From IMG/VR virus record IMGVR_UViG_2541047699_000003: 8,542 nucleotides of DNA; one strand, given 5' to 3'. The DNA is from a virus (taxonomy: Duplodnaviria; Heunggongvirae; Uroviricota; Caudoviricetes). How positions within the stretch are numbered: position 1 is the first letter of the stretch; each line of letters begins with the position of its first letter. Shown piece after piece: positions 1,990 through 5,666 of the stretch. Below the pieces are notes generated by a model. That model was not told where the DNA came from. It ran no database searches and worked only from the letters and a program-made list of their open reading frames with translations. The position numbers and the translations under genes were made by a program.

Positions 1990-2023
1990 GTTGTATGAGC
2001 TCTGGTGTGAGCTTACATATCTA

Positions 2024-2065
2024 TGGCACAGAGTAAAGACTAATCTGACAGTCCGCTCTGTGCCA
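2024..2065. repeat. Perfect 10-bp inverted repeat (TGGCACAGAG / CTCTGTGCCA) with a 22-nt spacer, 35 nt downstream of the G stop
   Basis: Read directly: 2024-2033 tggcacagag and 2056-2065 ctctgtgcca are exact reverse complements. Followed by AAAAAC on the + strand, so not a canonical intrinsic terminator in either direction. Confidence 0.6.
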
Positions 2066-2131
2066 AAAACGGACATGTCAAAGCGCAGAGTGAATGGCTA
2101 AGTCTAGCTCATTAGAAATGTTCGCTTCATG

Positions 2132-2173
2132 AAAATGGCTGCAGCAAGGATCTATCTCACTGCGGCCTCTTTA
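2132..2173 (-). terminator. Putative intrinsic terminator for the minus-strand cargo gene, possibly weakly bidirectional
   Basis: Stem 2137-2144 (ggctgcag) pairs with 2160-2167 (ctgcggcc): 8 bp with one G-U, 15-nt loop. On the minus-strand transcript the stem is followed by AUUUUC (complement of 2131-2136), about 27 nt downstream of the cargo stop at 2194. On the + strand it is followed by a weaker UCUUU. Confidence 0.45.
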
Positions 2174-2193
2174 CAATAACGAAATTTTGCGAG

Positions 2194-2949
2194 CTATTCC
2201 TTGGCCTCTTTATTTTTCTCGCCATCGCCAATGTAAAGAAGATAATCGTTTAAGGATATCCTTCCGGAGGGGCCGGTCCATGTTATCCATCCGTTCTCAC
2301 GAAGATTAAATAATGCTTCCATGAACTCATTATCGTTAAAAGAATGATCCTCTGAGAACAGAATGTTCATTTTTCTCAATAGTTCTTCCACTTTAATCTT
2401 TTCATATCGCCTTATCAGACTTAGTGCTTTACGACGCATTAAGATTGTAGGTACTGCTTGTGAACGAATGGTTTTTTGTATTCCACTATCAAGAACTTTC
2501 TTGATCTTACTCTCTAACTCTTTGATTTTAGTTTCATTATCTCCATTGGACTTAAGCTTTTCATCAACGATGCAAATAATTTCCTGACTAATGCTGTTCT
2601 TGAGGTTGTTTATTTTTTCTTCATTGTTGAGAATCTCATCAGAGCTTCCTGCATGGGGTTTTTTCCATATGTGCTGACGCATATCCGTTACCGTATCTCT
2701 CATCATAGAGAATGTATCTGAATATAACTTGTCAAATATTTTTTCCAGTCGTTCGACACTTGCCTGGATGTCTTTTGCTGCTTTAGTTGTCTCTTTAGAA
2801 GCCTCATTCGACATTTTATAAAAAACAAAAGAAAGCCAAATAGCCCCAATGGCGAGTACTAATGAGGCTATTGTGGCAATAAAACCTATTATTGTTATTG
2901 CTGTATCTAATGTACCTGCTGCATCTGTGACTACTGTTTCTGCTGCCAT
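2194..2949 (-). CDS. Hypothetical membrane-anchored protein, 251 aa; cargo gene at the P2 Z/fun-equivalent locus, candidate anti-phage / abortive-infection or lysogenic-conversion protein
   Basis: Intact 251-codon ORF opposite to all flanking tail genes. ATG at 2949 is preceded by GAGGA (2957-2953) with a 3-nt spacer. Residues ~17-44 (AITIIGFIATIASLVLAIGAIWLSFVFY, nt ~2818-2901) form a 28-residue hydrophobic segment; the rest is K/E-rich, helical-looking and soluble. AT-rich relative to neighbours: my counts on 60-nt samples give 24/60 and 20/60 G+C inside the gene versus 38/60 in the sheath gene. Function is inference from genomic context only. Confidence 0.75.
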   Translation of the reverse strand: MAAETVVTDAAGTLDTAITIIGFIATIASLVLAIGAIWLSFVFYKMSNEASKETTKAAKDIQASVERLEKIFDKLYSDTFSMMRDTVTDMRQHIWKKPHAGSSDEILNNEEKINNLKNSISQEIICIVDEKLKSNGDNETKIKELESKIKKVLDSGIQKTIRSQAVPTILMRRKALSLIRRYEKIKVEELLRKMNILFSEDHSFNDNEFMEALFNLRENGWITWTGPSGRISLNDYLLYIGDGEKNKEAKE

Positions 2950-3110
2950 ATATCCTCAATATTTAACCATACAGGGTAGCGTGTTTTAACCGCGGGGAAG
3001 TCGGGGTGGTGACACCCTAGCCTTACCCCGATTCCAGAGTATTTATTTATCATACCATTGAAACTATTTAATTTTATCGAAAATTTTGTCAGAGCGTGAC
3101 TGAAAAGTCT
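2950..3110 (-). promoter_or_regulatory. Probable promoter / 5' leader region for the cargo gene
   Basis: Non-coding, very AT-rich block (3040-3100) directly upstream of the minus-strand start. -35/-10 elements could not be placed confidently by eye (a CTGACA-like hexamer in the reverse complement of ~3086-3091 is one possibility). Confidence 0.3.
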
Positions 3111-3336
3111 TCAGCACGTCAAGCATATCGTCGCCGTTCAATTAACACTGAGCCTTTTCTTAGAGGGGTGGGCTGCGCAGTTGCGAGGTTATGCCCCAGT
3201 TCCTGGTTCCTCACTACATTCTAATTAAGCCGGCCAACTAAATGTCCGCTTTTCGCTCAAAGCAGACTGTCAGATTTGATAGCGTTTGGGCTAGGTAAAT
3301 TGTCAGTTGAAAAATGAGTGAGTACAAATCAGGACG

Positions 3337-3363
3337 GGCGGGCGAGTTGCCCGCCTTTTCTTT
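3337..3363 (+). terminator. Rho-independent terminator (+ strand) immediately upstream of the FI promoter
   Basis: GGCGGGC (3337-3343), loop GAGTT (3344-3348), GCCCGCC (3349-3355): 7-bp GC-only stem followed by TTTTCTTT (3356-3363). The minus-strand version lacks a U-tract, so it is oriented for + strand transcripts. Confidence 0.7.
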
Positions 3364-3364
3364 A

Positions 3365-3445
3365 ATCTGTTGTTTCATCCACTGACCAGTCAGGTCAAAT
3401 AGCGTCTTATGCACTGCCCAACAGAAAATAGTTGCACCCATTAAC
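3365..3445 (+). promoter_or_regulatory. Putative Ogr-dependent late promoter (PF-equivalent) for the FI-FII-E-T-U operon
   Basis: Positionally equivalent to the P2 PF late promoter. Contains the dyad CTGAC-CA-GTCAG (3382-3393) roughly 70-80 nt upstream of the FI ATG. No exact TGT-N12-ACA match was found, hence low confidence. Confidence 0.35.
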
Positions 3446-3460
3446 CACGGAGTTAAACGG

Positions 3461-4651
3461 ATGAGTGACTATCATCACGGCGTGCAGGTGCTGGAGATTA
3501 ACGACGGCACCCGCGTCATTTCCACCGTATCCACTGCCATTGTCGGCATGGTCTGCACGGCCAGCGATGCGGATGCGGAAACCTTTCCTCTCAATAAACC
3601 TGTACTGATTACCAATGTGCAGAGCGCAATTGCAAAGGCCGGTAAAAAAGGCACGCTGGCGGCGTCGTTGCAGGCCATCGCTGACCAGTCAAAACCGGTC
3701 ACCGTTGTCGTGCGCGTGGAAGACGGCACCGGTGATGACGAGGAAACGAAACTCGCGCAGACTGTTTCCAATATCATCGGCACCACCGACGAAAACGGTC
3801 AGTACACCGGACTGAAAGCCCTGATGGGGGCTGAGTCGGTTACCGGCGTTAAACCGCGCATTCTCGGCGTACCGGGACTGGACACCAAAGAGGTCGCCGT
3901 CGCACTGGCATCGGTATGCCAGGAACTGAATGCCTTCGGGTATATCAGCGCATGGGGTTGTAAAACCATTTCCGAGGTGAAAGCCTACCGCCAGAATTTC
4001 AGCCAGCGTGAGCTGATGGTTATCTGGCCGGATTTCCTCGCATGGGATACGGTTACCAGTACCACCGCCACCGCGTATGCCACCGCTCGTGCGCTGGGTC
4101 TGCGCGCTAAAATCGACCAGGAGCAGGGCTGGCATAAAACGCTGTCCAACGTCGGGGTGAACGGTGTTACCGGCATCAGTGCATCCGTCTTCTGGGATTT
4201 GCAGAAGCCAGGCACTGATGCTGACCTGCTGAACGAGGCAGGCGTCACAACGCTGGTTCGCCGCGACGGTTTTCGTTTCTGGGGTAACCGTACCTGCTCT
4301 GATGACCCGCTGTTCCTCTTTGAAAGCTACACACGCACCGCGCAGGTACTGGCCGACACGATGGCTGAGGCGCACATGTGGGCTATTGATAAGCCCATCA
4401 CCGCAACGCTGATTCGCGACATCGTTGACGGCATCAATGCCAAATTCCGTGAACTGAAAAACAACGGTTATATCGTGGATGGCACATGCTGGTTCAGCGA
4501 AGAATCCAACGATGCGGAAACCCTCAAGGCCGGAAAACTGTATATCGACTACGACTATACCCCGGTGCCTCCTCTCGAAAACCTGACCCTGCGCCAGCGT
4601 ATTACTTCCAGATACCTGGCAAGTCTGGTCACTTCGGTTAACAGCAATTAA
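3461..4651 (+). CDS. FI: Contractile tail sheath protein (P2 gpFI-like)
   Basis: 396 aa, the length I recall for P2 gpFI. N-terminus MSDYHHGVQVLEINDGTRVISTVSTAIVGMVCTASDADAETFPLNKPVLITNVQ matches my memory of the P2 sheath protein. GGAG RBS at 3448-3451. Confidence 0.95.
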   Translation: MSDYHHGVQVLEINDGTRVISTVSTAIVGMVCTASDADAETFPLNKPVLITNVQSAIAKAGKKGTLAASLQAIADQSKPVTVVVRVEDGTGDDEETKLAQTVSNIIGTTDENGQYTGLKALMGAESVTGVKPRILGVPGLDTKEVAVALASVCQELNAFGYISAWGCKTISEVKAYRQNFSQRELMVIWPDFLAWDTVTSTTATAYATARALGLRAKIDQEQGWHKTLSNVGVNGVTGISASVFWDLQKPGTDADLLNEAGVTTLVRRDGFRFWGNRTCSDDPLFLFESYTRTAQVLADTMAEAHMWAIDKPITATLIRDIVDGINAKFRELKNNGYIVDGTCWFSEESNDAETLKAGKLYIDYDYTPVPPLENLTLRQRITSRYLASLVTSVNSN

Positions 4652-4663
4652 GGAGCCTGACCG

Positions 4664-5182
4664 ATGGCAATGCCGCGCAAACTCAAGTTAATGAACGTCT
4701 TTCTGAACGGCTACAGCTATCAGGGCGTTGCAAAGTCCGTCACGCTGCCAAAACTGACCCGTAAGCTCGAAAACTATCGAGGTGCGGGGATGAACGGCAG
4801 CGCACCGGTAGACCTCGGCCTTGATGACGATGCGCTGTCAATGGAGTGGTCGCTCGGGGGCTTCCCGGATTCGGTTATCTGGGAGCTTTACGCCGCAACC
4901 GGCGTGGATGCCGTGCCGATTCGTTTTGCTGGCTCTTACCAGCGCGACGATACCGGCGAAACGGTGGCCGTCGAGGTGGTCATGCGTGGACGTCAGAAAG
5001 AAATCGACACCGGCGAGGGTAAACAGGGAGAAGACACCGAGTCGAAAATCTCCGTGGTCTGCACCTATTTCCGGCTGACGATGGACGGTAAGGAGCTGGT
5101 CGAAATCGACACCATCAACATGATTGAGAAGGTGAACGGCGTCGACCGGCTGGAGCAACACCGCCGCAATATCGGCCTGTGA
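4664..5182 (+). CDS. FII: Tail tube protein (P2 gpFII-like)
   Basis: 172 aa, immediately after the sheath gene with AAGGAG RBS at 4651-4656. Sequence MAMPRKLKLMNVFLNGYSYQGVAKSVTLPKL... is typical of Peduovirus tube proteins; sheath-tube order conserved. Confidence 0.95.
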   Translation: MAMPRKLKLMNVFLNGYSYQGVAKSVTLPKLTRKLENYRGAGMNGSAPVDLGLDDDALSMEWSLGGFPDSVIWELYAATGVDAVPIRFAGSYQRDDTGETVAVEVVMRGRQKEIDTGEGKQGEDTESKISVVCTYFRLTMDGKELVEIDTINMIEKVNGVDRLEQHRRNIGL

Positions 5183-5238: not shown

Positions 5239-5514
5239 ATGAACAAAGAAAATGTGATTACCCTGGACAATCCGGTCAAGCGTGGTGAGCAGGTTATCGA
5301 ACAGGTCACGCTGATGAAACCTAATGCCGGGACGCTGCGCGGTGTCAGTCTGGCTGCGGTCGCAAACTCCGAAGTCGATGCACTGATTAAGGTGCTGCCG
5401 CGCATGACGGCACCGATGCTGACCGAGCAGGAGGTCGCCGCGCTGGAACTGCCTGACCTTGTGGCGCTGGCCGGTAAGGTGGTCGGTTTTTTGTCTCCGA
5501 ACTCGGTGCAGTGA
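5239..5514 (+). CDS. E: Tail assembly chaperone gpE (zero-frame product)
   Basis: 91 aa ORF between the tube and tape measure genes, the conserved position of the tape-measure chaperone. Ends just after a T6G slippery run. Confidence 0.88.
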   Translation: MNKENVITLDNPVKRGEQVIEQVTLMKPNAGTLRGVSLAAVANSEVDALIKVLPRMTAPMLTEQEVAALELPDLVALAGKVVGFLSPNSVQ

Positions 5515-5666
5515 CGTTTCCGAAAAATCTGTCGGTCGATGACCTGATGGCAGATGTGGCAGTGATATTTCACTGGCCGCCATCAGAACTGTATCCCATG
5601 AGCCTGACCGAACTCATCACATGGCGCGAAAAGGCGCTCCGGCGAAGCGGAAGCACGAATGAGTAA
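5239..5666 (+). CDS. E+E': gpE+E' fusion chaperone made by -1 programmed ribosomal frameshift (join 5239..5490, 5490..5666)
   Basis: Slippery run GGTTTTTTG at 5485-5493. Slipping back 1 nt after the TTT codon at 5488-5490 opens a frame that runs 58 codons to TAA at 5664-5666. 84 + 58 = 142 aa, the size I recall for P2 gpE+E'. The E' stop overlaps the T start (ATGAGTAA, 5659-5666). Confidence 0.8.
5485..5493 (+). other. -1 programmed ribosomal frameshift slippery site (G GTT TTT TG)
   Basis: T6 run followed by G in the last codons of E; the -1 frame is open from here to 5666. Analogous to the P2 E/E' and lambda G/GT frameshifts. Confidence 0.75.

Follow-up and report, generated by a model that had tools for sequence, protein, structure and literature searches.

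A GC-rich leader hairpin in a P2-like prophage cassette as the likely decayed copy of an origin-like element of filamentous phages

The viral DNA of 8,542 nucleotides held as IMG/VR record IMGVR_UViG_2541047699_000003, referred to as the window in its full length, is assigned to a P2-like (Peduovirus) prophage. The interval 2950-3336, which extends from the start of a minus-strand cargo gene to a plus-strand terminator, had been described in the original prediction as one non-coding leader of ~390 bp with an embedded GC-rich structured element and an orphan terminator downstream. In the current analysis this interval is found to be split by a conservation break at 3241/3242 into a cassette part (2950-3241) and a backbone part (3242-3460), and the single leader has to be given up. 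We consider it likely that the P2 terminator and late promoter are joined here to the promoter and leader of the cargo gene, and that the GC-rich hairpin of this leader is a decayed element of filamentous phages (inoviruses), probably an origin. The predicted feature is real as sequence and ordinary in function, and the inovirus element is the more interesting by-product.

The genes of the window follow the order tail-fibre gene H (end), G (1462-1989), variable region, the sheath gene FI (open reading frame, ORF, 3461-4651, ATG at 3461), the tube gene FII, E/E', the tape-measure gene T and the start of U. The variable region between G and FI contains a single minus-strand gene. Megablast comparisons with phage genomes reveal that the entire region 1990-3460 is shared only with P22H4 and phage 9W, and that only the last ~220 nt before FI (~3241-3460) are common to 60+ P2-like phages with other cargos. 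The features of this region are as follows.

2042-2076, no strand: left inverted repeat of the P2 Z/fun hotspot, inner arm, pairing with 3242-3276; backbone
2079-2096, minus strand: right-end inverted repeat (IRR-like) of the cassette, caaagcgcagagtgaatg, adjoining the end of P2 backbone conservation at 2076
2132-2170, minus strand: intrinsic terminator of the cargo gene, folding at -22.7 kcal/mol (z = -4.4)
2194-2949, minus strand: cargo gene of 251 aa in the ORF list, with an N-terminal transmembrane (TM) helix, a coiled region and a C-terminal winged-helix-like part
2950-2985, minus strand: translation-initiation region with Shine-Dalgarno GAGG at 2954-2957, the most conserved non-coding stretch of the cassette (92.8%)
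2986-3044, minus strand: diverged three-hairpin element of inovirus type, with H1 CUCUG-GAAU-CGGGG, H2 GGGUG-UCAC-CACCC and a remnant of H3
3049-3057, minus strand: predicted extended -10 promoter of the cargo gene, TGGTATGAT, with a predicted start near 3042
3058-3158, minus strand: spacer homologous (nhmmer) to the non-coding stretch between transposase and passenger gene of an ISNCY-type transposon
3159-3241, minus strand: 5'-most segment of the cassette, with 75% identity among five cassettes, containing the CTGCGCAG palindrome at 3173-3180 and a 7-nt tandem duplication
3242-3334, no strand: right inverted repeat of the P2 Z/fun hotspot, inner arm 3242-3276; backbone, from GenBank annotation and alignments
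3336-3362, plus strand: intrinsic terminator of the phage backbone, the only strong plus-strand one found by the terminator scan between G and PF
3366-3394, plus strand: binding site of the late activator Ogr at the promoter PF, aligning with the 'activator binding site; activation of pF promoter' of P2 (AF063097)
3435-3460, plus strand: PF transcription start (~3435-3437) and FI leader, aligning with the 'transcription start site for F operon' of P2 (AF063097)

The sequence elements of the original prediction are all found at their places, namely the GC-rich patch CGCGGGGAAGTCGGGGTGGTGACACCCTAGCCTTACCCCG at 2991-3030, in which CGGGGT (3002-3007) can pair with ACCCCG (3025-3030) around a 17-nt loop, the 8-bp palindrome and the terminator. 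Perfect GC-rich 6-bp stems are in excess of chance (two observed against a mean of 0.07 in dinucleotide shuffles, P = 0.005), and the structured element is to that extent borne out. The palindrome is present, but at chance level (two 8-bp palindromes observed against 1.5 expected in such shuffles, P = 0.46), and it has been set aside as a feature, though it is conserved along with its surroundings.

The patch is homologous to an element of filamentous phages. A covariance model (R1) matches the minus strand at 2986-3044 with 17.4 bits (E = 0.011 in 88.7 kb, 0.004 in 35.9 kb), and matches the same position upstream of the homologous gene in loci L041, L044, L005, L133 and L134. Its scores form a series, with 84-85 bits for the canonical copies of L132 and L054, 54-61 bits for transposon units and 17-29 bits elsewhere. 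The window patch shares 65% identity with the transposon unit of L050 (blastn E = 1e-12), and nhmmer gives E-values of 1e-9 to 1e-17 against transposon units with the canonical core. In the window copy H1 pairs only through two G.U wobbles, H3 is barely recognisable and the loop of H2 is cut from 11 to 8 nt (TGGTGACA, plus strand) with loss of GTTCT. The ORF list of the window contains no rep gene; the intact loop, the palindrome and the cognate rep that characterise a gpII-type origin are all wanting in this copy.

The upstream regions of the cargo homologues share a motif that corresponds to the GC-rich patch, most of them also with an extended -10 just upstream of it. Patterns derived from this motif matched 21 and, in a broader form, 57 IMG/VR contigs of inovirus size (3-15 kb). 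A 57-nt consensus matches (blastn) the 'major intergenic region' of If1 and an Alteromonas inovirus over most of its length, with partial matches (51-65% of the query) in oral inoviruses and in a Vibrio CTX-region record, and the element is encoded in 689 of the 5426 complete E. coli genomes. Its first hairpin, H1, is a palindrome of two 6-bp arms around N4, the sequence of which varies between phages with the complementarity kept: double changes occur at all six pairs, and 87.7% of cells are paired compared with 59% in shuffles and 28-45% in slid controls. G.T and A.C mismatches of H1 show no strand bias, and an assignment of the strand from them was dropped as uninformative. H2 has the invariant stem TTCGGG/CCCGAA with a loop of 10-12 nt, and H3 is a short hairpin. 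The canonical plus strand reads GTTCGGG[GTTCTGTGACA]CCCGAAC-TTTA-(6-bp palindrome, N4).

In the inoviruses the element is situated between a small regulator gene and a variable cargo slot. In all 54 contigs with a recognisable rep gene of the gpII family it runs opposite to the cargo and in the direction of rep, and in 50 of these it lies 330-864 nt upstream of rep with the small, reverse-oriented regulator gene between. Filamentous phages of several bacterial orders carry this element of ~60 nt in almost unchanged form. Rfam does not include it, and where its region is annotated, as in If1, the label is only 'intergenic region'. Unannotated reverse-strand ORFs also appear to be present in the 1.2-kb 'major intergenic region' of If1 (L087, 5100-5310, minus strand); a gene of ~63 aa resembling a regulator ends 12 nt before H1 and a small ORF follows the element, a layout as in the prophages.

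The canonical element is probably the core of the rolling-circle (+)-strand origin of these inoviruses, because it resembles the M13 origin and is placed accordingly with respect to rep. In If1 the canonical element occupies 64 nt (5047-5110). The viral strand of If1 reads GGTTCGGG[GTTCTGTGACA]CCCGAAC-TTTA-CCGTGG-TTTC-CCACGG, and the origin of M13 reads GAGTCCAC[GTTCTTTAATA]GTGGACTC-T-TGTTCCA-AAC-TGGAACA. The nick loop of M13, GTTCTTTAATA, and the loop of If1, GTTCTGTGACA, both have 11 nt, of which eight are identical. A nick-type hairpin followed by an inverted repeat, on the plus strand upstream of rep, would qualify the canonical element as an origin of gpII type. If so, cryptic inovirus prophages and their cargo slots could be found and oriented with the element as a simple marker.

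In the lineage of the window this element is decaying. As mean pairwise values among five cassettes of the window's type, the identity is 69.6% in the element (3044-2986), 75.0% in the 5' segment (3241-3159), 77.5% at third positions of the coding sequence, 82.2% in promoter and spacer (3158-3045), 87.3% in the coding sequence (2949-2194) and 92.8% in the 36 nt before the ATG (2985-2950). The element is thus the least conserved part of the leader, with insertions and deletions inside its stems. The patch evolves at least as fast as synonymous sites and is in this respect relic-like. It is most likely a vestige that would have arrived with the cargo gene from the cargo slot of a filamentous phage, rather than a riboswitch or a small RNA.

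In the same five cassettes, the stretch 2950-2997 (minus strand, ~36-48 nt upstream of the ATG, GCGGTTAAAACA..ACCCTGTATGGTTAAATATTGAGGATAT) shows 92.8% identity against 87.3% in the coding sequence, and may serve to control translation.

Four of the five window-type cassettes have the promoter motif TGGTATGAT unaltered, the Hafnia phage copy (L044) having TGGTACGAT, and the transposon units have a similar motif, TGATATTAT, at the same place. Cargo transcription is predicted to start near 3042, with a 5' untranslated region (UTR) of ~93 nt; a second promoter-like site is seen at 3092-3063. Read on the minus strand, the 5' part of the cassette would thus comprise a segment of unknown origin (3241-3159), the transposon spacer (3158-3058), the promoter (3057-3049) and the 5' UTR of ~93 nt, of which the first ~60 nt would be the GC-rich patch and the last 36 nt the conserved ribosome-binding region.

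For the segment 3159-3241 no relative has been found outside this cassette type in the E. coli genomes and the transposon and inovirus loci searched. A by-eye similarity of ~3205-3241 to the left end of the transposon is unsupported by nhmmer and was rejected. The 7-nt tandem duplication AGGAACC|AGGAACT (minus reading, ~3195-3208) is present in the window and P22H4 and is absent from other cassette relatives; it probably explains a match that is 7 nt shorter in E. coli hits of 96.9% identity.

The cargo protein matches phrog_36054, a PHROGs family of unknown function, and has no significant match in Pfam or among the defence-system models of PADLOC. Homologues sharing 65-89% identity have been identified in phages, chromosomes, a plasmid and filamentous prophages: in a P2-like phage of Hafnia between genes S and V, in the chromosome of Citrobacter koseri adjoining the 3' end of a tRNA, in Serratia oryzae, on a conjugative plasmid beside traI, in several filamentous prophages, and in E. 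coli at a site adjoining hipBA. The same leader precedes the homologues of the Hafnia phage, C. koseri, Serratia oryzae and the conjugative plasmid. A homologue from Providencia (L056, ~2430-2480) has three tandem CCCCCGTAGTA repeats instead of the origin-like element.

Plasmid and chromosomal copies connect the cassette to a transposon. In these the canonical core is located just downstream of a transposase gene annotated as ISNCY, which encodes 466 aa with a helix-turn-helix (HTH) and a weak rve match, and upstream of a variable gene. The passengers, one per unit, are an AbiJ_NTD4/DUF7014, a SIR2 or a TM-winged-HTH (TM-wHTH) gene. Units, intact or pseudogenised, are found at L088 2341-5185, L089 4772-7570, L050 740-4752 and L006 1394-3863. 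They have terminal inverted repeats, with a direct repeat of 11-13 nt (AAACATTGTAG) in L088 and two units in tandem in L050, and are situated ~10-13 nt from the XerC arm of dif or dif-like sites. An nhmmer profile of the cassette matches L088, L089 and the second unit of L050 over its positions 129-342, and its positions 119-214 match the 3' end of the transposase gene as well. The 3' part of the cassette matches the right ends of L088 and L089, which have other passengers (nhmmer E ~1e-22 to 1e-24).

A tblastn match to the transposase C-terminus over 3186-3073 (E = 0.006) gives weak support to the idea that the interval is the decayed 3' end of a gene, but the closer homologue is a non-coding spacer, and this trace seems better explained as spacer that is a paralogue of the 3' end of the transposase gene. 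Plasmid copies were also considered as single-strand promoters or ssi of F-type leading regions, a candidate rejected in view of copy H50 on NZ_CP103331, which lies beside an ISNCY transposase pseudogene with passenger and outside any leading region. In the window itself only the right-end repeat (2079-2096) and the internal spacer remain of the ISNCY/IS1202-like transposon, and neither a transposase ORF nor a left end nor a dif-like site is detected.

At the hipBA-adjacent region of E. coli the same element is accompanied by different genes. Strain 144 has a SIR2 gene there (L089 6092-7444), and a homologue of the TM-wHTH cargo is found in L048 49-786 (E. coli) and L132 385-1110 (a Sequence Read Archive contig). 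An exact dif site is confirmed only in L089, and none is found within the short loci L048 and L132.

On the inovirus side, more than 20 contigs carry the segment with the cargo-terminator hairpin, at a distance of 350-2400 nt downstream of the element. The cargo slot is thus bracketed by the origin-like element and the terminator hairpin, as seen in the enterobacterial IMG/VR loci L066-L129 (for example L071 592-1500 and L067 7388-7982). The first ORFs of the slot fall into 25 clusters among 53 instances, one being a Shedu nuclease (SduA_C) and most without a known domain. The same flanks surround Shedu, SIR2, AbiJ-like and this unknown membrane protein in inoviruses, the transposon and the P2 hotspot, which suggests a concrete route for single-gene defences between very different mobile elements.

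We propose that the cargo gene left an inovirus slot with the origin-like element and the terminator hairpin still attached as its two flanks; the dif-targeting transposon would be the likely vehicle, and the cassette would then have reached the P2 hotspot. In a double-stranded DNA phage of P2 type that has no initiator of gpII type, the element would be without origin function, drifting, and transcribed as the 5' end of the cargo mRNA. Among the explanations offered earlier, the remnant of a previous cassette comes closest to this, with the modification that the remnant would be a decayed filamentous-phage element and that the non-coding parts of the cassette, 5' and 3', have their homologues inside and at the right end of a dif-targeting ISNCY/IS1202-like transposon with other passenger genes.

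The backbone part of the interval has been recognised from its independence of the cargo. The two inner arms of the hotspot repeats (2042-2076 and 3242-3276) are 35 nt long and 86% complementary. The left arm is kept in P2-EC31, P2-EC58 and Wphi whatever the cargo, the right inverted repeat is conserved in 61+ phage records, and in the Z-region records of P2-EC phages (GenBank AJ512677 and AJ512683) left and right inverted repeats are annotated around the variable part. The window therefore has the flanking inverted repeats between G and FI that define the Z/fun backbone of the P2 family. The innermost ~15 nt of these repeats (ATGTCCGCTTTTCGC-like; 2062-2076 and 3242-3256 in the window) also accompany the cassette to sites outside P2. 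Both ends are seen in C. koseri (L041, 2202-2216 and 3375-3389) and the downstream end in the Hafnia phage (L044, 3375-3389), the upstream end of the latter being more diverged. The cassette boundary seems to lie inside the hairpin of the hotspot repeat.

The terminator, GGGCGGGCGAGTTGCCCGCC+TTTTCTTT at 3336-3363, has a stem (3336-3356) of 9 bp including seven G-C pairs followed by the T-run TTTTCTTT, and folds at -20.1 kcal/mol (z = -3.8), so that its strength is as had been claimed and it has the GC-rich stem-loop and T-run of a Rho-independent terminator. It is not an orphan because it belongs to the conserved P2 backbone and is present whatever the cargo: it is kept with small stem variants in P2, Wphi, P2-EC31, P2-EC58 and P22H4, with an invariant T-run in five P2-like relatives, and its region matches 94 phage records. 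It ends ~10 nt before the annotated activator site of PF. The TGT-N12-CCA motif of the Ogr site lies at 3370-3387, as in the annotated site of P2, and the window agrees with an Ogr-dependent P2 late promoter, for which a partial dyad TGT-N12-ACA ~55 nt upstream of the start is expected. The terminator would end the rightward late transcription that runs from H and G through any hotspot cargo, and would insulate PF. The supposed orphan would accordingly be the phage's own insulator before the tail-sheath promoter, and the GC-rich hairpin would be inherited baggage and not a regulator.

The interval contains no credible ORF, as had been stated. None of its three ORFs (40, 42 and 67 aa) matches a family significantly. 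The 67-aa frame (3238-3441, minus strand), which spans the terminator and PF and is entered as 'hypothetical protein' in several GenBank records, was rejected in view of a 1-nt indel of the T-run that breaks the frame in Wphi, P2-EC58 and P22H4, and is probably not a gene. Elsewhere in the window, the tube gene is separated from the tape-measure gene by two ORFs that overlap (5239-5514 and 5511-5666). They represent the usual E/E' arrangement of P2, where a programmed frameshift is involved.

A number of points weigh against the explanation preferred here. The promoter and the transcription start of the cargo gene are predictions. The P2 record carries no terminator annotation, and the role of a terminator of the H-G transcript is deduced from sequence and position. 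Origin function of the canonical element is likewise argued from resemblance and placement; the M13 origin is missed by the covariance model (7 bits, E = 7.5), and none of the characterised phages whose nick site is mapped contains the element. The lack of strand bias in H1 fits a protein-binding palindrome in double-stranded DNA and a hairpin equally well, and a role as RNA is possible. One compensatory change, GGGTG/CACCC in the window against GGCTG/CAGCC in L041, hints at a retained hairpin, and the element is still recognisable at 65-70% identity of the cargo proteins, which may indicate weak constraint.

A rival possibility is that the patch is a working RNA structure in the 5' UTR of the cargo gene, either an mRNA-stabilising stem-loop or a translation switch, kept in every context. 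Such a function is unlikely in our judgement. It would agree with the position of the patch at the 5' end of the predicted transcript in cassettes of transposon and window type, with the inoviruses, where the element lies between regulator gene and cargo on the same strand and hence is also transcribed, with the alternative pairings CGGGGU/ACCCCG and GGGUG/CACCC, and with the compensatory G-C to C-G change. However, no Rfam family is matched: at permissive thresholds the best match overlapping the interval is the L20 leader (15.4 bits against a gathering threshold of 58.7, E = 8.7), and canonical copies match no family. Folding of the whole interval is unremarkable on both strands (z = -1.4 on the plus, -2.0 on the minus strand), and the patch alone, as cargo-sense RNA, folds no better than shuffles (z = -0.8, and -1.0 in a second estimate; -2.1 on the plus strand). 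The faster change of the element in the window lineage than of third positions, the indels of its stems and the single compensatory change do not conform to a structured cis-regulatory 5' UTR, and H1 mismatches are without strand bias. In the canonical family the sequence of H2, an 11-nt loop included, does not vary among Enterobacterales, Vibrio, Alteromonas and oral inoviruses, which speaks for recognition of a specific sequence and not for a generic stabilising hairpin. Of the long regulated 5' UTR suggested earlier, what stands is that the patch lies inside the predicted UTR of the cargo gene; the predicted length is ~93 nt, not ~390 nt, and the regulation is unlikely. A small plus-strand RNA ending at the terminator 3336-3362, possibly antisense to the cargo leader, is highly improbable. 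A strong plus-strand terminator without a preceding plus-strand ORF inside the island, and the conservation of 3277-3335 in all P2-like phages, would be in keeping with it, but there is no plus-strand promoter-like site between 2250 and 3600, the conserved stretch is the annotated inverted repeat of the hotspot, Rfam gives no match, and the insulation of PF from read-through accounts for a terminator in the P2 backbone without any new gene.

The conserved flanks could also be active DNA sites for exchange or mobilisation of cassettes, through homologous recombination of the flanks or nicking by a filamentous-phage initiator, with the window copy still serving as such. At least 25 unrelated ORFs occupy the first cargo position between the same two flanks in inoviruses and transposon units, a SIR2 or a TM-wHTH gene is found behind the same element at the same dif-adjacent site of E. 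coli, and cassette and flanks occur together at several unrelated insertion points. Against this, the window copy has lost the canonical loop of H2 and most of H1 and is drifting, its cassette has no recombinase or initiator in the ORF list, the window lacks a dif-like site, and simple common descent would also be expected to leave shared flanks; we regard active exchange as quite improbable. The broader idea, that origin-like element and terminator hairpin are the working ends of a cassette system which moves single defence genes by inovirus initiators or flank recombination, is a rather doubtful one. Its carriers would, with the same reserve, be dif-integrated inoviruses, dif-targeting IS1202-like transposons of plasmids and chromosomes, and P2-like hotspots, with the window copy as a footprint or perhaps a usable site.

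The reading of the patch as a decayed inovirus element invites comparison with the origin of the Ff phages (M13/f1/fd). The canonical element has, like hairpin D with the gpII nick site, a 7-8-bp stem and an 11-nt loop, and, like hairpin E with its gpII-binding inverted repeat, a short palindrome 1-4 nt after the hairpin; both lie on the viral plus strand upstream of a rep gene of the gpII family (Pfam Phage_CRI). It differs from M13 in having no detectable overall sequence homology and from Ff in the reverse-oriented regulator gene between element and rep. The window copy, with its 8-nt loop and degenerate palindrome in a double-stranded DNA phage that lacks rep, is by these characters unlikely to be a functional member. 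The same logic of two hairpins is known from phiLf, in which SL2 is nicked and SL3 is bound (bioRxiv 10.1101/2023.12.30.573655). The ori(+) of CTXphi adjoins rstR and is nicked in the loop of a hairpin (PMC4439123); a link of the element to this origin was rejected, as CTXphi records match only an unrelated flanking repeat.

Insertion targeted to dif has likewise been published for the IS1202 family (PMC10132070; bioRxiv 10.1101/2022.12.17.520857), whose insertion sequences (ISs) share the dif-adjacent placement and the long direct repeat with the transposon units described here. Unlike these ISs, the transposon, a putative member of the IS1202 family, has a passenger gene and flanks of inovirus type. 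The window cassette, in contrast to the dif-targeting ISs, is a transposase-less derivative in a hotspot of tailed phages. This Z/fun hotspot of P2 (AJ512677-AJ512683) goes back to Nilsson et al. 2004, as cited in PMC6379469. The window is similar to it in the G-FI position, the inverted repeats, the Ogr site TGT-N12-CCA and the start site all align, and fun(Z) of P2 is also a minus-strand cargo with a leader of 170-290 nt. The cargo gene and leader of P2 are other than those of the window, which in addition has the transposon-type right end and the inovirus-type element. Hypervariable cargo regions of inoviruses (pHVRs) have already been described for Vibrio (PMC12715192), and the slot of the enterobacterial inoviruses resembles them in carrying variable genes that are partly anti-phage (Shedu SduA_C, SIR2, AbiJ-like).

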